From: a virus
Virus record (IMG/VR): IMGVR_UViG_3300019776_000919
Coordinates: 32,001 to 96,000 of that record
Direction: 5' to 3' (one strand)
Length of the DNA: 64,000 nucleotides
The notes beneath the pieces were generated by a model. The model was not told the DNA's origin, did not search any database, and worked only from the letters and a program-made list of their open reading frames with translations. A program made the position numbers and the translations under genes. Position 1 is the stretch's first letter, and each line of letters begins with the position of its first letter. Shown piece by piece: positions 17,481-61,050 of this stretch.

Positions 17481-20078
17481 TTATAGACGAGGGTCAAGGA
17501 GCTTTTCTTGCTTCATTTGACCAATCATTTTAACAACGTACATTTTCCGGTCTTCATCATTTGCAGTTAGCATGGCTGATGCTAAAGCATGTTCCTGAAT
17601 ACTTGTACGGACTTTGCCTGAAATGTTCTTTTGACGACACAGACGGAGATATCGTTCCGGACGCGTATAGTCGTAACCATACACAATCCGTAGATACTCC
17701 TCTGAGCGTACTTTTAAGAACGGCAGTTCTGAGTTAGGATCTTCAGCCTTGACTACTAACCCTTCCATACCATTCTCGATAGTAAGGACATTGAAGAATT
17801 GTTTTGCAACTTCCACTTCTTCCGGCTTGGTCGTATCTATCTTCAAATAAGCGTCTTTATTTACGCTTTTAAAGTTGATAGATTGTAGCTGCTTAGACCA
17901 ATCCGTTACTGAAGTATCTGAATTATACAACACTTTGAATGGCCTAAATTCAACCGGAGTATCTTTGGTAAACAGCGCCAATGATTGGTGGAATTTCTTC
18001 AAATCTTGTTGTCGATTCGAAACATCCATTTCAGTTGCAAATCCGGTAAGTTTACTGAATTCAGAATCTGAAGCCAACGTCGTCAATTCATGATTGACCA
18101 AAAGCCCGTATGGATAAAAGTGAGAAGTAATGAGCCCCTCACCTAATGCCATCCACGGAAGAAGTTCTCCGTCGATGATCATATCTCCATAGGTCTCCAA
18201 GTCTGACGCTCTCTTAGCGTGTTCCGATAGTAGAAATTGCTTGTATTCTTCCGGAGTTTTCCCATGCACTCCTTTAATTACCCAGCCGCCACGACTAACG
18301 GCAAACGTTTTTTCAGGTTGACCCTTGTACAAATACAGCTGGCAACGACTACCCATGTATTTGCTTTCCAACGTTACTTCCGTTACTCCCCGATTTTTAA
18401 AGAAGTTAAACGCCCCTTCGAGAGGTTCGATTTTTTCATTTGAACTAGGTGCCGGAGCCATAGTTCCAGAAATATATCGAACACCGTTTTTCATGACTTG
18501 ATCCAAGAGACGTAAATCCCTTGCCTCTAAGTCATAGTCGAGGATGTTGAATTTGTTGTCTACCAGAATACCTTTTGCAAGGTCTTTAGCAACCGAAGGA
18601 TCTTCGACCCGAGTCTTGCATTTGATTTGAATTTGACTTGCAATCTTACCGTTTTCGATAAGAACTGCGGTCAGATCCCCTCCATACACAGCACCGGTAT
18701 CTAAGAAAACCTTATTTTTAAAGTTGAGCTTTTTGAACCTATCACTTTGCATCGAGGTCACATGACCAAAAATATGCAAAGGCATACTGGCATCAGCTTC
18801 TTTATAAAGCCAATTCAGATTTTCTTGGACTGATTTTTCACGGTCTTTAATTCGATAGTTTCTTTGGGCAGTTAAAGTATTGTCGTGTACTTTACCTAGC
18901 TCAGAATTCAGGCACGGCGCATGGGTAATGTAGACGGGTAGGCTACCATCTTCTGCAAACGTGTTGATAACTGCAAAAGGAAGTGATTGCTCAAAGATCT
19001 TAAAGAACTTTTCACGATGCTCCTCACTTTTCTCCAGAACCGAAACAGACGTAAAATAGTCCTTTTCAATTTCTAGATTGGGCTCAATCATCCCTTTCAG
19101 ACGCTTATAGACATAATTTTCGTGATTACCGATAATTACTATGTCGGTAGAAATACGCCCATACATCAAATCAACCATCCGAAGAGTATCGTTACCCTTG
19201 TCAAGATAATCCCCGACATGAATGATTCGATATTCTTCCGGAATTCGACTGATCAGCAGTTGCAGTTCATCAACGCATTCGTGAGAGTCTCCAATTACTG
19301 CAAACTTAGAAATCCCATCTCCCCCGTTGTAGTTAATTTCCGAGCACTCAAATTGAAGTTCAATTTTTTGCTTGGCAATTTCAGTAAGGGCGTGATCTTC
19401 CCATACTCCAGATGCGCCTTCAAACCACCAAGAGTTGTCTCGGGGAAGATCCCAGCCAAAAGACTCTTTATATGAAATCCGTAGACGCTCATCAAAGTTT
19501 TTTGCCTTAAGAGCAGGAAGGATTTTTCGGCGGAATTTGATAACTGAATTTTCAATGATTGCTTTTTCAGATTCAGTGTCTTCCTCATGGAAGTAATCCG
19601 AGCGATTCTTGTATTCAAAAGTAACTAGAACAACTTTATAGCCGTTTTCTTTACCAATGTTGAGAACCAGTTCCCGAAATTTCTCATCCATACCTGTAGT
19701 ATCTATTACTACAATCTCAGTGGAGATGGGGAAAGATACTGCTGCCCTGTATTTAGTAATGAGAAGCTTAAAAGCTTGTTCACTTACCGCCTGCATACCT
19801 TGAGTGTATTTGCTTGATGAGGCATACGGGGACAGATTTGAAATTTTCAACAAATCTTTGCGAATACGATCAGACGAGATGACCTCCCAGGGGATCATCA
19901 TTGCATCGCTCAAATTTGCAATGTCTTCAGCAAATTGAGATTTACCAGAAGAAGTGGGTCCGCAAAGAACAAACACCGTATGCGGAACCAAATTGATCTT
20001 CGGGATCAAATTGATGGGAGGTTCTGTGTTGCTAGAAGTATCGTTTGAATTCATGGTATTTTCGCTAGTCATTATCAA
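17481..20078 (-). CDS. pnkp: Bacterial-type Pnkp (polynucleotide kinase + metallophosphoesterase + RNA ligase/adenylyltransferase)
   Basis: GPTSSGKS P-loop; IGDSH, VGDYLDKG, GNHE, GHV, LDTGAVYGG; ligase motifs ESKYMGSR, DGELLPW, EGLVVK, KVR-x-x-EYLRIVYG, terminal DPRL. Confidence 0.92.
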   Translation of the reverse strand: MIMTSENTMNSNDTSSNTEPPINLIPKINLVPHTVFVLCGPTSSGKSQFAEDIANLSDAMMIPWEVISSDRIRKDLLKISNLSPYASSSKYTQGMQAVSEQAFKLLITKYRAAVSFPISTEIVVIDTTGMDEKFRELVLNIGKENGYKVVLVTFEYKNRSDYFHEEDTESEKAIIENSVIKFRRKILPALKAKNFDERLRISYKESFGWDLPRDNSWWFEGASGVWEDHALTEIAKQKIELQFECSEINYNGGDGISKFAVIGDSHECVDELQLLISRIPEEYRIIHVGDYLDKGNDTLRMVDLMYGRISTDIVIIGNHENYVYKRLKGMIEPNLEIEKDYFTSVSVLEKSEEHREKFFKIFEQSLPFAVINTFAEDGSLPVYITHAPCLNSELGKVHDNTLTAQRNYRIKDREKSVQENLNWLYKEADASMPLHIFGHVTSMQSDRFKKLNFKNKVFLDTGAVYGGDLTAVLIENGKIASQIQIKCKTRVEDPSVAKDLAKGILVDNKFNILDYDLEARDLRLLDQVMKNGVRYISGTMAPAPSSNEKIEPLEGAFNFFKNRGVTEVTLESKYMGSRCQLYLYKGQPEKTFAVSRGGWVIKGVHGKTPEEYKQFLLSEHAKRASDLETYGDMIIDGELLPWMALGEGLITSHFYPYGLLVNHELTTLASDSEFSKLTGFATEMDVSNRQQDLKKFHQSLALFTKDTPVEFRPFKVLYNSDTSVTDWSKQLQSINFKSVNKDAYLKIDTTKPEEVEVAKQFFNVLTIENGMEGLVVKAEDPNSELPFLKVRSEEYLRIVYGYDYTRPERYLRLCRQKNISGKVRTSIQEHALASAMLTANDEDRKMYVVKMIGQMKQEKLLDPRL

Positions 20079-21376
20079 GCAACCTTTTTAAAGTGAACCA
20101 TGAATGAACAAGGTTCTGAATTTATAACATCACCTAATGCAGAAACTTCTACATCAAAATGTTTAGGCGTAGCGATTGAACTAAGAAAGTCGCTTAGATC
20201 TTTCAGATCAGGTTCCCACTTGTGGTCATCGTGTCGGAATTGACCTTCTAAACCGTAGTTGACATTGAACGCATGATTAGGCATAGTAACCACTACGTTA
20301 GTAGGGCCTTCACCGCCATTTAGAATTGCTTTAAGAATCTCGATGGATTCTTTACGATCCATGTGTTCCAATACTTCTGACAACAATACATCATTGTTTT
20401 CAGCAATAGATGGATTGGAAGATAGAAATTCCATGTCAAATCTTTGATTGATGACATCGATATTTTCAATCTTGCGTTTCTTTAAACGTAAAGAATTAAT
20501 CTCGCAAATTTCAGGATCTACTTCAAACGCCAGAATCTGTGTGTAATCTGGCGACAATTTCAAAGAGTGGGACAACTCCCCGCATCCGATATCGAGCAGG
20601 CAGTCAGATACTCCTTTAGTCGAAAGAATACTTCTGACTGCATTCAATCGCTGGTTTTGATTATTACCCATTTGGAAAGTCATAGTTGCAGTATCTAAGA
20701 TACCCAATTTTCGTGCCTCTTCAAATAAAGGCCGGTTTGTTATAGCCCGTGAAATAAACAGGTGACGCAACGCATATGGGGCATCTGCGGAATTCAAAGA
20801 TCTCAAATATTTGAATACTACTTCTTTGTTCATCGGCACATACAAAGATTCGTCACTTAAAGTAACAATGATGCAGATAATTTGAAGCGTATTGAGGACC
20901 GCCGACACTGTAGGTCCAGTGACCTTAACCTTGTGGATAAAATTACTAACGTCTTTGTTCAAAGGCGTCATTTCAATTTGACATTCACCTTTGATTTTTA
21001 GCCAATTTACAATACGAGGGTTGGCTTGAATCACAACTTCTACATAAGCAGAGTTTGCAATAGGAATATCTAATTCATTACCGAGGGCTGCGGAACGTAA
21101 AGCCTCATTAATAATTTGGATGGGTGAATAGGGACTTGCATATCGAGTCAAGTCCAGATACTCAAATTCTCCGTTTTCACTAAAAGAATTTTCTAGATCT
21201 GAGTCTTTAAACAGAATTCGAAATTCTGAATTATCCGGCTTTGAAAACCAGCCGTAAATATTACCTTTGCGAACTTGTCGTTTAAAAGGTGTTTTAGATT
21301 CTTGAATCGTAGCGGGATTCTTAGAAAGGATAAAAGAAAATTGAGGATTGGATGAACCAACGGTAAGAATCGTCAT
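20075..21376 (-). CDS. hen1: Hen1 3'-terminal RNA 2'-O-methyltransferase with N-terminal ligase-activating domain
   Basis: LLDIGCGE SAM motif, EVLEH, TMPN, FRHDDHKWE; N-terminal F-x-L-x-KNP and Y-x-D-x-x-RYAS; coupled to pnkp. Confidence 0.9.
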   Translation of the reverse strand: MTILTVGSSNPQFSFILSKNPATIQESKTPFKRQVRKGNIYGWFSKPDNSEFRILFKDSDLENSFSENGEFEYLDLTRYASPYSPIQIINEALRSAALGNELDIPIANSAYVEVVIQANPRIVNWLKIKGECQIEMTPLNKDVSNFIHKVKVTGPTVSAVLNTLQIICIIVTLSDESLYVPMNKEVVFKYLRSLNSADAPYALRHLFISRAITNRPLFEEARKLGILDTATMTFQMGNNQNQRLNAVRSILSTKGVSDCLLDIGCGELSHSLKLSPDYTQILAFEVDPEICEINSLRLKKRKIENIDVINQRFDMEFLSSNPSIAENNDVLLSEVLEHMDRKESIEILKAILNGGEGPTNVVVTMPNHAFNVNYGLEGQFRHDDHKWEPDLKDLSDFLSSIATPKHFDVEVSALGDVINSEPCSFMVHFKKVA

Positions 21377-29900: not shown

Positions 29901-32127
29901 TTACAGCAACAAACTGCCACCAAAACTGGCTGCGGATTTGGTTTTAATCTTTTCAATTATTGCATAGATTTCTGTTTGAGTAACTCCGGAATGTACAACT
30001 TCCGTTTCACCCCAAGAGATGCCAACATCGCCTTCACAACCAATGGGTAATTGGAGCCAAGGAAATGCTTTCATCGGGTATTCATCCATGGTCCGATAAG
30101 TTAGGTTAATAACTTCTGCTGCTTTTTCTATGGGGCACTCAATTTCTATCGAATCGTAGCTTGATTCAAAAATATTTTCATATTTTTATGGACTATATCA
30201 TAATGTGTTTAATACCCAAGTACCAAACACATTCCGTGCGCTCTAGAGGTTTTACCACCCGGTCAGGGCTCCATACCTTAGTCTCTGAACCTTCCACCTA
30301 TTCCTAGGCGGCTTGGCTGCTGATTATCCAATCTTTCTCTTTTTCAAACTATCACGTTTACTATTACTAATTACGTTGTAGTAGAGAAAGCTCTCAGGGG
30401 TTTCCAGCAATTCACACGGTTTTCAGTTATTCCTCACGAAATAACGCCGCCTACGTTAACGGTACATGTACAAATAGCACCGAAAGGTTTAACTACTCTA
30501 TTTACTTCTGTAAAAGTAGCCAAGCCGATAGTACTAGTTGCGCTTTGAATGATTACGTTTTGACTGTTGCGCAAAGAACCGTTATAAGCGGCTGTAGGCT
30601 TGAAGCAATTATAAGTCCCGAACTGACGCTTGCGTTGGCCAAGCGGAGTAATACTGAACTGATTGTATAGTGCAAATTTATGAGCTTTTTCAATGTATTC
30701 CTTTACTTTAGGGAAAGTGTTAAAGTACATTGCAATGAGCGTTTCAGCTTCCGATTTTTCCAGGTTAAGCTGCATTGCAATGCCTGCGATTGAAGATCCG
30801 TATAAGCAGATACTCTATATGTTTCCATATAGTCTAGACTATACCATCATCCTTTTATCTGTGAATCGATAAAGGATGCTCGCCGTGTTATGGATAAATC
30901 CATCCTAGTATCATCTGTTCTAGATGACCTATGAGTCGTTGAACCATTTATAACCATCCCTGGTTATTCTGGCTGCTGATTGCCATACCTGATTTCAGGG
31001 TTAGGGTTCCAGCAATTGAGCGAGTTTGCATACTTATGTTACCACAAGTAGGTACCGTAATCAATACTAAAAGTCAAAGTCTTGCTCAGCTGGCGCAACT
31101 CTTTATATTCCCTATATTTAGGATGACTGCTGTCTGACAACACAGCAATAATCTCTTCATAAGGAATCTTTCTCATGGCACTTGCAGAGAATGAATGGAA
31201 GTCCAATCCCTCTGCAATAGCTTTCAGCATAGCTGGCTCTTTGGATATGTTTGCTAGAACCTTGACTTCAGCAGAGCTAAAGTCAAAGCTAATAAACACA
31301 TACCCCTCCCTTACAGTATAACAAGTTCTTACGTTGTATCCGTGCCTTGCTCTTGGGAGCTGGGTCAGGTTAGGATCTGAACCGGTTATACGGAATGAAG
31401 AGGTGCCAAATTGATTGTAACTGGGATGAATTCGTCCGTCTCTTTTTACCCAGTCTTTGACGTACGTTTTAATGAACGTATTATGAACCGAGGAAATATC
31501 ACGGCGAACAGCCATATCAGCTAGGAACTGAAGCTTTTCATCTTTAGTTACGTATTTACCACCTAAAGGATCTAATCCTGCAAGAGTCAATAAGGCAACT
31601 CCATCAGTAGCAGGTTCACCACCTTTCGTAGTAAACGGTACTTCAAACCCTAGTTCTTCATACAAAAAGCTAGCTACTGCAGGGCCAGAATTTAAATCAA
31701 TTTTCTTCCCAATTTGAGAGAATATCTTATCTTCTAATTGAGCTATTTGCTCAACCATCTTTCTATCAAGGAATTGATTGCGGGGGATGGAATAACCCAT
31801 ACCTGCAATTTCCAAGTCGATAAGAAATTCATGAGCTGGTATTTCTAATTCCAAAAAGCTTTGAATTATAGGCGGAGCTTTCGAGTCCACTCTATTGCCC
31901 CGATCATCAAAATCGATAATCGGAGTTTCCATTACTAAATCTGGAAAAGTCTTGGCTAAAAGTTCAGACGTAGCAATGCAATCTATGCCTGCATAAGTAT
32001 AGAGTTTTTCTTCATCGAAATCTTCATACGTAAGTTTTTCTGAGGCGCTTACTTCTGATTTCTCTTTAGACTCGCTGTTTTCAGAATCGTCAAATAGTTC
32101 GTCAATCCAAATCAGTTGTGAACTCAT
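29901..32127 (-). CDS. polA: Family A DNA polymerase, C-terminal subunit; spliced join(32127..31064, 30806..30459, 30159..29901)
   Basis: ExoIII YAGID; R-I-T-G-x-x-PNLTQLP; motif A FDFSSAEVKV; splicing restores motif B KTLTFSI|LYG and motif C TV|YDS in frame. Confidence 0.92.
30160..30458 (-). mobile_element. Group I intron 2 in polA (299 nt, no ORF), in motif C
   Basis: Exon ...ACCGU with IGS GCGG; core AAUUGCUGGAA, AAUCAGCAGCC, UUCAGAGACUA, GAUAUAGUCC; terminal G; junction GT|C restores Val-Tyr-Asp-Ser. Confidence 0.93.
30807..31063 (-). mobile_element. Group I intron 1 in polA (257 nt, no ORF), in motif B
   Basis: P1 GUAU|UG-AUUA-CGGUAC with U-G at the splice site; core AAUUGCUGGAA, AAUCAGCAGCC, UUCAACGACU, GGUAUAGUCU; terminal G; junction AT|C restores Ile-Leu-Tyr-Gly. 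Confidence 0.93.
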
Positions 32128-59192: not shown

Positions 59193-59711
59193 TTACGACC
59201 GCAGGCGTTTCATGCATCGATCAAGTGCTTCTCCATCGATAACCCCTATGGAGAAGAAATCCTTGGGGTCAAGGGTTAGTGACCACCGATCTTGGCAATC
59301 CATTGTGGTTGCCGTGAAAGGGACGGTATTGATCACCACCACGAAAGGGTAACTTCCTTTTGAACCACGGATCATTTCACCACCAAATTTCTTGACGATG
59401 TCACCGACCTTCAAGGTGACTCCCGTCCTGACCGTCTCTTTACGGACTTCAGGGGTGGGCGAAGTCATTCGAGGTATCAACGGCTCCGCAATCAGCGGTT
59501 GAAAACCCAACCCAACTTGCAGGGTAGGGATTTCTTGCGTTGCCGATTTTTTGGTTTCCACCTGAATCAACTTGGGACCCGAATCTTGTTTCGGCAATTG
59601 ATTCGGCATCCGGAAAGGAGGAGCTGATTTTTCAATCGGCAAATTTCCAATCCCCGTTACCAACGAAGGAGGAGTGGTTTGAATCTGGAAATCAGACATA
59701 GCGTGTAACAC
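59193..59711 (-). CDS. Hypothetical protein
   Basis: Pro-rich N-terminus, SH3-like LKVGDIV domain; start probably MSDFQ. Confidence 0.55.
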   Translation of the reverse strand: MLHAMSDFQIQTTPPSLVTGIGNLPIEKSAPPFRMPNQLPKQDSGPKLIQVETKKSATQEIPTLQVGLGFQPLIAEPLIPRMTSPTPEVRKETVRTGVTLKVGDIVKKFGGEMIRGSKGSYPFVVVINTVPFTATTMDCQDRWSLTLDPKDFFSIGVIDGEALDRCMKRLRS

Positions 59712-59731
59712 CTATTTGTTCAAGTTGGTAA

Positions 59732-60280
59732 TGGTAGGCCGTGTTGGATTCGAACCAACGACCAAAGGATTCGTACCACTTCGACTTTCGCCGCCGTCTT
59801 TCGACGTTCGTGGTCTGGACTATGTCTTGACCATACTACCGTCGCAGGTTAGGTCCGTGCTGTTTAGTCTCTACACCTTTCGCCTTAGGGGAGGCGACTT
59901 GGCTCGGCATTAGCTTGGAATTGTATGAACACGTCAGGAGTTCAGGAAAGGGCGCACCACAATCCTTCAGTCCATGATCACTATTCATGCCCTTCTTTAG
60001 CTTTCGCCGAATTTAACACGATTCATCCCAAATCTCACAGTAGTTCGCATTGCATCGGATTAACCTATCCTCTGAGGGGAGGATGATTGAATTATGCCTT
60101 GTGAGCATATCAATTTATTTGCAATGTTACTATACCGGCTTTTGATTTAGTTTATACGCCTTTCGGTTGAGTCGTTACGCCATCCGGGCTGATGACTACC
60201 GCTCATTTTTCGTAGATGCACAATACTGAAAATGAGATTTACTATGAGTCCTCTGCTCTAACCATCTGAGCTAACGGCCC
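59732..60280 (-). tRNA. tRNA-Ile2(CAU), interrupted by a group I intron; exons 60280-60244 and 59771-59732
   Basis: Spliced product GGGCCGTTAGCTCAGATGGTTAGAGCAGAGGACTCAT|AATCCTTTGGTCGTTGGTTCGAATCCAACACGGCCTACCA folds as a cloverleaf; resembles Ile2 rather than Met. Confidence 0.9.
59772..60243 (-). mobile_element. Group I intron (IC3, Azoarcus-like), 472 nt, no ORF
   Basis: Core GUUAAAUUCGGCGAAA, GCUAAUGCCGAGCCAAG, AAGGUGUAGAGACUA, GACAUAGUCCAG, GGCGAAAGUC; P1 CUCAU|AGUA:UACUGUGAG; terminal G. Confidence 0.92.
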
Positions 60281-60522
60281 ACTGCCAACTTTTTAAAGCA
60301 TAAAGCAATGTACAGATTTCTCTGTACTATTCTTATACCATGTTGTAATACGATTATTGAATTACTAAAGAGATCTCAGTTTGTATTTGTCATTCCTTCG
60401 GTATACAGTCTCTAACCACACCCAATGCACAACGTCTTCATTGTATTGATTTTGAGTAGTGACTAAAACCGGATACCAAGCAAACCAATTCTTCCATCCG
60501 TGGTCAGGTATGATTCTGATTC

Positions 60523-61050
60523 TCATCGTTTAAATTTTGCCCGTGTGAAGATTAAAGCCGCCAAAGCAATGCCGAGTAAGAACATGGATCCGGGTTCAGG
60601 GACCTTGTTAGTTAATACTAGAATTTCTTTTTCCTGACTACGTTCCTCAGGGATGGGGTCCGGGATTTTGAACTCAGTTCGTTGATGTCTGTCAATTAAA
60701 GAAATGTTGTTGCAAACAGTAGGGATTATTACACACACTTTCGGGGTGCAATAAACCAGGCCTCGTTCAACCCTGGCAGGCTCCCAGTTCATTTTGACAT
60801 TTCGACAAATCTTATTTCTACCAAAAGCCATGTAGCGAAGATTGTCATATTTGTAGTAAAAGCCCTCAATACCCTTTTGAGTAATGGTTGCCATCTCTAC
60901 ATAGTCTTTTTTTTCAACTAGAGTGGTTAGCTTTCGCTTATCCTCTATGTCAATGGGTAAACGATAAATTGCATCACCTAAATTTCCGCCGCCGTTCCGA
61001 AACGAATCCAATCCTGGATTTGTCCAATCGCAATTGTCCAGAAATATCAC
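60523..61050 (-). CDS. PEP-CTERM sorting-domain protein (MHFG-family-like)
   Basis: C-terminal VPEPGS + TM helix + basic tail; C-x-W-x-x-PG, MAFG, ERGLVYC, PTVC-x-N. Confidence 0.8.
   Translation of the reverse strand: MIFLDNCDWTNPGLDSFRNGGGNLGDAIYRLPIDIEDKRKLTTLVEKKDYVEMATITQKGIEGFYYKYDNLRYMAFGRNKICRNVKMNWEPARVERGLVYCTPKVCVIIPTVCNNISLIDRHQRTEFKIPDPIPEERSQEKEILVLTNKVPEPGSMFLLGIALAALIFTRAKFKR

Follow-up and report, generated by a model that had tools for sequence, protein, structure and literature searches.

What is the structured stretch of some 200 nucleotides that separates the 5' splice site from the catalytic core of a group I intron in a phage tRNA gene: an insertion that could regulate splicing, or a part of the ribozyme's own architecture? 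The intron lies in a window of 64,000 nucleotides, the whole stretch of DNA analysed here, which covers bases 32001-96000 of an IMG/VR virus record; the record is 169.7 kb long and has direct terminal repeats. In the preliminary description of this DNA, the segment at 60028-60248 (minus strand) was taken for an insertion in the L1 loop, across which P1 closes and in which a competing helix hides the internal guide sequence. The observation behind that proposal is partly confirmed here and its anatomy is not upheld: the flagged stretch most likely consists of the P1 hairpin and an enlarged P2 domain, both belonging to an IC3 intron of the Azoarcus type that interrupts a phage tRNA(CAU) gene. 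The parts of the split tRNA and of the intron core are as follows, with an arrow for the splice site.

60244-60280, minus strand: 5' exon of tRNA(CAU), with last bases ...GGACUCAU and U60244 at its end, from the sequence and from ARAGORN on the spliced product.
Between 60244 and 60243, minus strand: 5' splice site, within CAU↓AGUA.
60243-59772, minus strand: group I intron in tRNA(CAU), 472 nt, with the 3' end ...GUGGUACG.
59772-60021, minus strand: catalytic core P3-P9, from the Rfam Intron_gpI match and coordinates taken from the sequence.
Within 59772-60021, minus strand: P3 (UCGUGUU/AGCACGG), P4 (UUCGGCG/GCCGAG) and P7 (AGACU/AGUC).
Within 59772-60021, minus strand: extended P5 arm, P6, and P9 with two GAAA hairpins.
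Within 59772-60021, minus strand: P8 with a CCUAAC...GUAUGG receptor-like motif.
59772, minus strand: omega-G, the terminal intron base; exon ligation restores the host tRNA.
59732-59771, minus strand: 3' exon of the tRNA, AAUCCUU...ACCA, from the sequence and in-silico splicing.

When the exons are joined in silico, a 77-nt cloverleaf tRNA(CAU) results that is recognised by ARAGORN, which calls it Met on the basis of the anticodon only. Its anticodon stem is without the three G-C pairs of the initiator type, and the acceptor stem has C4-G69 and C5-G68, pairs that are lysidine-synthetase determinants in E. coli tRNA-Ile2. Because of these acceptor pairs and of the anticodon stem, an Ile2 identity is plausible for the tRNA, judging from its sequence. 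The Rfam group I model (Intron_gpI, RF00028) matches the intron over the full length of the model with 46.2 bits and an E value of 1.7e-10, compared with a gathering score of 50 bits; the match runs from 59792 to 60061 and takes in P3-P9 only. No relative of the intron described below reaches the gathering score, and the intron of L084 scores 37.9 bits. The tRNA(CAU) intron is presumably catalytic.

The closest known layout would be that of the Azoarcus tRNA-Ile intron, in which the guide triplet GUG runs straight into P2. Both introns sit in the anticodon loop of a CAU tRNA and are spliced after CAU, and they have very similar P3/P4/P7 core strings (AAAUUCGGCG, GUAGAGACUA), GAAA tetraloops and a P8 motif of the CCUAA...UAUGG type. 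The Azoarcus intron is about 205 nt long with a single P2 hairpin, whereas the intron in the window has 472 nt, a P2 that is a multi-helix domain of about 195 nt with invariant blocks, an extended P5 and a double P9. [quoted passage not shown]

Relatives of the intron were sought with a pattern for the core, which retrieved 75 IC3-like introns from viral contigs, and of these L075 alone had matches to the supposed insert too, in two short blocks. Searches with the blocks brought in eight real loci from metagenomes as well as L079, L080 and L091, which lie on jumbo-phage contigs 222-282 kb in length, such that the family now holds 14 distinct introns: that of the window and 13 others, all from phage or metagenome contigs. 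Inside the supposed insert, the members have two blocks in common, ..UUGNGCAYCUACGAAAAAUG.. and CAACCGAAAGGCGUAUAAA, and in every member the elements follow in the same order: guide triplet, CAYC, URCG, AAAAAUG, a variable arm, CAACCGAAAGGCGUAUAAA, a variable hairpin, G-GRUG-AAU, P3 and P4. Of the 14 aligned introns, 13 carry the 19-mer CAACCGAAAGGCGUAUAAA without a change and L091 has a diverged copy, while P3 in the core varies among the members. No further members were found when hidden Markov models of the blocks were run on the 75 generic IC3 introns from viral contigs; the 19-mer and the conserved blocks are absent from 185,579 bacterial and archaeal genomes; a different, exact 19-mer, drawn across the 5' splice site of the window's intron, has no match in IMG/VR; and elsewhere in the phage genome neither the stretch nor the module occurs again. 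A literature search found no description of an enlarged, highly conserved and phage-restricted P2 domain.

The hosts of the family are tRNA-Leu genes, the one CAU tRNA, and hairpins that resemble an anticodon arm. The spliced products of L084 and L086b are tRNA-Leu(UAA) according to ARAGORN, and L088 holds the 5' half of a tRNA-Leu, which ends in CUU. The classical site of tRNA-Leu(UAA) introns is CUU/...g/AAAA (bioRxiv 10.1101/2020.01.27.920355). L084 and L086b are inserted at exactly that site and have guides of the UUGAG type; the classical introns differ in their simple P2, and the copy in the window differs from them in its CAU host. In L075:6290-6880 (minus strand) and L083, in L080:960-1650 (plus strand) and in L082:680-1640 (plus strand), the intron occupies the loop of a long hairpin built like an anticodon arm (GAGAACAUAGGCGU-ACAU↓AAAA-GCGUCUAUGUUCUC is an example), and an open reading frame starts tens of bases downstream. 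No tRNA is interrupted at these sites, and ARAGORN finds none in the in-silico-spliced products of L075/L083, L080 and L082. Unlike these members, the copy in the window interrupts a complete and apparently functional tRNA gene.

With the family in hand, the 5' end of the intron can be divided into a short P1 hairpin and what follows it.

60240-60246, minus strand: 5' strand of P1, CAU↓AGUA, 7 bp with UAUUGUG, with U60244.G60219 at the splice site.
60226-60239, minus strand: L1 loop of 14 nt, AAUCUCAUUUUCAG, read from the sequence; the exon end CUCAU is repeated in it at 60236-60232.
60219-60225, minus strand: proximal internal guide sequence UAUUGUG, in a conserved block; GUG (60221-60219) pairs with the exon CAU.
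60034-60042, minus strand: distal complement of the splice junction, UACUGUGAG, a 9-bp duplex with CUCAUAGUA at -10.0 kcal/mol.

In the preliminary description, the distal UACUGUGAG was the guide, and P1 was closed over a loop of about 200 nt. The complementarity between CUCAU↓AGUA (60248-60240) and UACUGUGAG (60042-60034) is there as reported, 9 bp with a U.G pair exactly at the splice site; the role of this duplex as P1 does not stand. By comparison with the relatives, the working guide sequence would be the proximal UAUUGUG (60225-60219), with P2 directly after it, because the triplet covaries with the exon, as GUG with CAU here and as GAG with CUU in the tRNA-Leu hosts. UAUUGUG begins only 14 nt past the 5' strand of P1, at a position homologous to the guide in the 13 related introns, and the guide triplet of the window's intron lies 22 nt from the splice site, where the family as a whole ranges from 11 to 54 nt (in L079, L085a/L086a and L090a the 5' splice site is unplaced). 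The triplet before CAYC is GAG in introns with the exon end CUU, L084 and L086b included, and GUG in the window, with exon CAU, as well as in L075/L083 and L080, where CAU lies upstream, so that the middle pair between guide and exon switches between U-A and A-U together with the exon. The proximal site also offers a P10, in which AAU, the first bases of the 3' exon, can pair with AUU (60224-60222); the same AAU/AUU is found in L080, and the Leu introns have AAA/UUU or AA/UU. At the distal site the corresponding bases are ACU, which form no P10 with the 3' exon, and P10 thus fits the proximal site only. During the first splicing step, the exon CAU and the intron AGUA would be paired with UAUUGUG, and the AAU of the 3' exon would afterwards replace AGUA on AUU to form P10.

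That the distal UACUGUGAG nevertheless serves as guide, with P1 spanning some 200 nt and UAUUGUG left as a relic, seems highly improbable. Its duplex is the stronger of the two in nearest-neighbour energies (-10.0 kcal/mol, versus -3.2 kcal/mol for the proximal P1), 12 of 1000 shuffles within the P2 domain reach that strength, and a fold in which it is forced has -58.7 kcal/mol, near the minimum. Against it stand the matching triplet at the homologous proximal position, the missing P10 and the coordinates, which show that UACUGUGAG paired with the exon would form a pseudoknot across P2 and the P2.2 base, both supported by covariation. Moreover, the hairpin before GGGUGAAU-P3 has 13 nt in L084, which therefore has no room for a distal guide sequence. 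The points that count against the family fold with its proximal guide are the nearest-neighbour energies, the height of this fold above the minimum and the alternative pairing in the minimum-energy fold of the pre-tRNA (both given below), a complementarity that is nominally improbable by chance, the one-sided changes in P2' and the Rfam score below threshold.

The remainder of the flagged stretch, 195 nt that lie 3' of the guide, belongs to P2, and the label of an L1 insertion is to be replaced accordingly. The elements of the domain outside its variable hairpin are these.

60215-60218, minus strand: 5' strand of P2, CAUC, right after the guide, pairing with GAUG at 60027-60024.
60214-60211 and 60158-60155, minus strand: P2', tentative, UACG/CGUA, with one-sided changes only.
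Within 60168-60214, minus strand: conserved junction AAAAA, and P2.1, UGAG (60205-60202) with CUCA (60171-60168).
Within 60168-60214, minus strand: internal loop GGUAGUC / GGCGUAAC and a terminal hairpin, both enclosed by P2.1.
60150-60171, minus strand: conserved block CUCAACCGAAAGGCGUAUAAAC, with a CC-GAAA-GG tetraloop hairpin at 60166-60159.
60024-60027, minus strand: 3' strand of P2, GAUG, followed by J2/3 (AAU) and P3, from the alignment and RNAalifold.

The structure scored on the family alignment (A2) consisted of P2 (CAYC/GRUG), P2' (URCG/CGUA), P2.1, the CC-GAAA-GG hairpin and the base of P2.2. Its partners are paired in 95.1% of the cells of the alignment, compared with 81.1% in shuffled alignments, none of which (0/500) reaches 95.1%, and with 30-44% when partners are displaced by 1-3 columns; both sides have changed in ten of the pairs. 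P2 is paired in all 14 sequences, with two double changes, in the forms CACC/GGUG and CAUC/GAUG and with wobble pairs. In P2.1, 92.8% of the cells are paired and four pairs have changed on both sides. When run unaided, RNAalifold recovers P2, P2.1 and the GAAA hairpin. The comparative evidence thus identifies the flagged 200 nt as what appears to be a conserved P2 domain of a small family of phage introns. P2 (CAUC/GAUG) would close this domain of about 195 nt, within which the junction, P2.1, the invariant CC-GAAA-GG hairpin and the variable P2.2 would follow one another. The invariant GAAA tetraloop probably docks on the CCUAAC...GUAUGG motif in P8 and would thereby clamp the core, a contact that is proposed because of the analogy with L2 of Azoarcus.

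Several details of the preliminary description bear on the same stretch. It is structured as had been noted, given that its 221 nt fold better than shuffled sequences (z -3.03), and it is free of open reading frames, with none of at least 40 aa on the intron strand of 60028-60248. Among the helices reported for the loop, AUCCUC/GAGGAU and UAUGC/GCAUA recur in the minimum-energy fold, and the long-range UGCAUC/GAUGCA is given up, since it competes with CAUC/GAUG, the family-conserved P2, and with CAUUGCA/UGCAAUG inside P2.2, both better supported. The suggestion that the insert is the remnant of an endonuclease gene is unsupported, because no reading frame is present and because the equivalent hairpin, 13 to 122 nt long, is noncoding in every member.

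The variable hairpin, P2.2, is expanded in the window's intron, with 122 nt compared with 13-102 nt in the relatives, among which L084 is the shortest.

60029-60149, minus strand: P2.2 variable hairpin, about 120 nt here, from its closing stem and a constrained fold.
60149-60144 and 60034-60029, minus strand: closing stem of P2.2, UAAAUC/GAUUUG, shared in position, not in sequence, by most members.
60134-60128 and 60042-60036, minus strand: inner stem of P2.2, UAUAGUA/UACUGUG, from the constrained fold.
60126-60120 and 60054-60048, minus strand: inner stem of P2.2, CAUUGCA/UGCAAUG, from the constrained fold.
Within P2.2, minus strand: three terminal hairpins, AUCCUC/GAGGAU and UAUGC/GCAUA among them, from the constrained fold.
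60030-60037, minus strand: UGAGAUUU, 3' strand of an 8-bp helix with AAAUCUCA, at -6.8 kcal/mol.

The competing helix on which the idea of a switch was built can be verified by indexing: AAAUCUCA (60240-60233) is perfectly complementary to UGAGAUUU (60037-60030), and it excludes the 9-bp duplex of the splice junction, given that A60240 and UGAG (60037-60034) are common to both. What it was said to hide, UACUGUGAG, is not the homologous guide sequence, which in this intron is the proximal UAUUGUG. GAUUU of UGAGAUUU doubles as the 3' strand of the P2.2 closing stem, and because that stem is conserved in position, half of UGAGAUUU is accounted for as the 3' strand of a conserved stem. Similarly, UACUGUGAG has a local 7-bp partner inside P2.2, UAUAGUA, which resembles the splice junction. 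In the proposed fold, UACUGUGAG would be the 3' strand of an expanded P2.2 rod, normally masked by this partner, and its complementarity to the splice junction, to L1 and to the guide would make it a competitor that promotes misfolding, for which the role of a regulator is not required. A pairing in L080 (AUUGUGC/GCAUAAU) was also considered and dropped, as a closing stem CAUUA/UAAUG fits the family pattern at that place.

The 8-bp helix belongs to a more extensive pairing, in which 60243-60215 (L1, the true guide and the 5' strand of P2) can be bound by 60055-60029, the 3' strand of P2.2, at -19.7 kcal/mol (z -3.15; 2 of 500 shuffles reach it). In separate shuffle runs, the complementarity of the 5' segment to P2.2 was reached by 15 and by 18 of 1000; the corresponding p values of about 0.004-0.015 belong to a feature that was selected after the fact. 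The best duplex of the splice junction with the P2 domain has -12.1 kcal/mol and is reached by 12 of 1000 dinucleotide shuffles, or by 30 of 1000 when the whole intron is considered, and the complementarity of the junction is modestly beyond chance. In eight relatives with long P2.2 arms, the complementarity of the 5' segment gives z values of -1.1 to +1.2, and the feature is found in the window only. The family-constrained fold lies 9.6 kcal/mol above the minimum in the window, twice the next-largest gap, versus 0-5 kcal/mol in 11 relatives, in two-dimensional energies that ignore tertiary stabilisation. In the minimum-energy fold of the full pre-tRNA, the 8-bp helix is kept together with CAGU/ACUG and GCAUC/GAUGC, and neither P1 is formed. 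The folding models therefore indicate that, in the window's intron, the native fold faces a real competitor of unusual strength; this competitor presumably has no dedicated function.

Two observations in the same segment concern its repeats. L1 contains, at 60236-60224 (minus strand), a stretched copy of the splice junction, CUCAU-UUUC-AGUA, compared with CUCAU↓AGUA at 60248-60240. Within it, CUCAUUUU (60236-60229) is an 8-bp complement of AAAAUGAG (60209-60202), which covers the conserved junction and the 5' strand of P2.1, and the local hairpin of these two dominates the folds of short 5' prefixes.

On balance, we read this as a self-splicing IC3 intron of the ordinary kind, whose P2 domain is enlarged in a way specific to its family and whose competing pairings are incidental, and assign this reading a probability of roughly 70%. 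In the rival account closest to the original proposal, the segment 60055-60029 was selected as an anti-guide that captures 60243-60215 and turns splicing off, as a built-in switch or a kinetic trap, with UAUAGUA..CAUUGCA as the anti-anti-strand, and with temperature, Mg2+, or a protein or ligand on P2.2 or the module setting the balance and hence the supply of the tRNA. The three-strand layout is visible in the sequence, and the strength of the pairing, its persistence in the pre-tRNA fold and the outlying fold gap of the window all speak for such a device, for which there is one natural precedent: the c-di-GMP-II system of Clostridioides difficile is the only natural allosteric group I ribozyme known, and is confined to that species (PMC9481103). 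There, as here, a structured domain lies beside the guide, and alternative pairings could in principle decide the 5' splice site. The C. difficile ribozyme is hosted by an mRNA leader rather than by a tRNA, and no c-di-GMP-II or other known aptamer is detected in the window's intron, whose alternative pairing is not conserved. A scan of 59650-60400 with cmscan, at E values up to 10, returned only Intron_gpI and three chance-level matches; a riboswitch reading by way of a known aptamer was rejected, as no Rfam aptamer family matches the region at that level. The 8-bp helix, on whose conservation the preliminary description had made its proposal depend, occurs in no relative, and no close orthologue is among them. 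Because no relative shares the anti-guide pairing, a switch is possible but unsupported by the family. The likeness of the masking strand to the 5' segment is automatic, since P2.2 is a rod, and hence is not independent evidence; the after-the-fact choice of the feature and the omission of tertiary stabilisation from the energies weigh on the same side, and selection for a switch or trap is considered unlikely.

The pairing could alternatively act after splicing, as a lock in which the 3' strand of P2.2 binds the freed 5' end of the intron (AGUAAAUCUCA...) and the guide and thereby blocks re-binding or reverse splicing, or the CUCAU at 60236-60232 could guide circularisation. The alternative pairing does use no exon nucleotides, the duplicate of CUCAU lies 12 nt into the intron, and the 5' end of the Azoarcus intron, once released, pairs again with the guide, after which omega-G circularises the intron (PMC13168695). 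Here too, the family does not conserve the pairing, and CAU (60234-60232) extends poorly on the proximal guide, with only 3 bp, which makes a role of this kind very unlikely. A broader version, in which the enlarged P2 is a control module whose P2.2 anti-guide strand toggles between a splicing-competent and a locked fold, while the invariant blocks bind a protein or a small molecule, is quite unlikely as well. If it were true, the release of an AUA-reading (Ile2-type) tRNA would be timed during infection, and the intron would rank second among natural allosteric group I ribozymes and would be the first of them to act on a tRNA; any regulated form of the competition would in itself make it only the second.

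For the ordinary IC3 intron that is preferred here, the practical result concerns annotation: in the window and in its relatives, the guide is to be placed proximally, and the large 5' region is to be treated as a conserved peripheral domain outside the Rfam group I model. The domain defines a phage-restricted sub-family of IC3 introns. Its block of 19 nt, with junction and tetraloop, is invariant in 13 of 14 members while P3 varies, and it offers a structural target for the study of how peripheral domains are elaborated. The copy in the window is in addition a natural case of a native ribozyme fold set against a strong alternative pairing.

Among the relatives, L089:1-1100 (minus strand) holds two diverged copies of the intron head to tail, with no exon between them. 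The second copy starts 16 nt into L1, directly after the omega-G of the first (GUGGUACG followed at once by AGAUACUAUCG...). The pair could be a true tandem array or an assembly of variants of circular intron RNA. Inside another family intron, at L086:2346-2434 (minus strand), a segment matches positions 2126-2215 of bacterial LSU rRNA with 51.6 bits, above the Rfam threshold. These positions are presumably the L1-stalk region, and the intron arm may be a mimic that binds a ribosomal protein.

The phage genome itself carries many tRNAs and tRNA introns. At 17481-21376 of the window (minus strand), adjacent open reading frames have the kinase, phosphatase and ligase domains of Pnkp and the N-terminal and methyltransferase domains of Hen1, and by their domain content they appear to be a phage-encoded RNA repair pair of the bacterial type. 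Two further group I introns (78.5 bits each) lie at 30169-31073 (minus strand), just downstream of a reading frame with a family A DNA polymerase domain (31039-32127), with which they overlap by about 35 nt; the polymerase gene is probably split in three. Beside the split tRNA, the reading frame at 60523-61050 (minus strand) ends in a PEP-CTERM motif (Pfam E 7.7e-06) and has no relatives in IMG/VR. ARAGORN also reports a permuted (two-piece) tmRNA gene in this phage, at G000:C1:101936-102267 (minus strand), and permuted tmRNAs lie within a few kb of family introns at L075:3544-3830, L083:6148-6425 and L084:3318-3534, which suggests that tmRNA genes and introns of this family share an RNA island.
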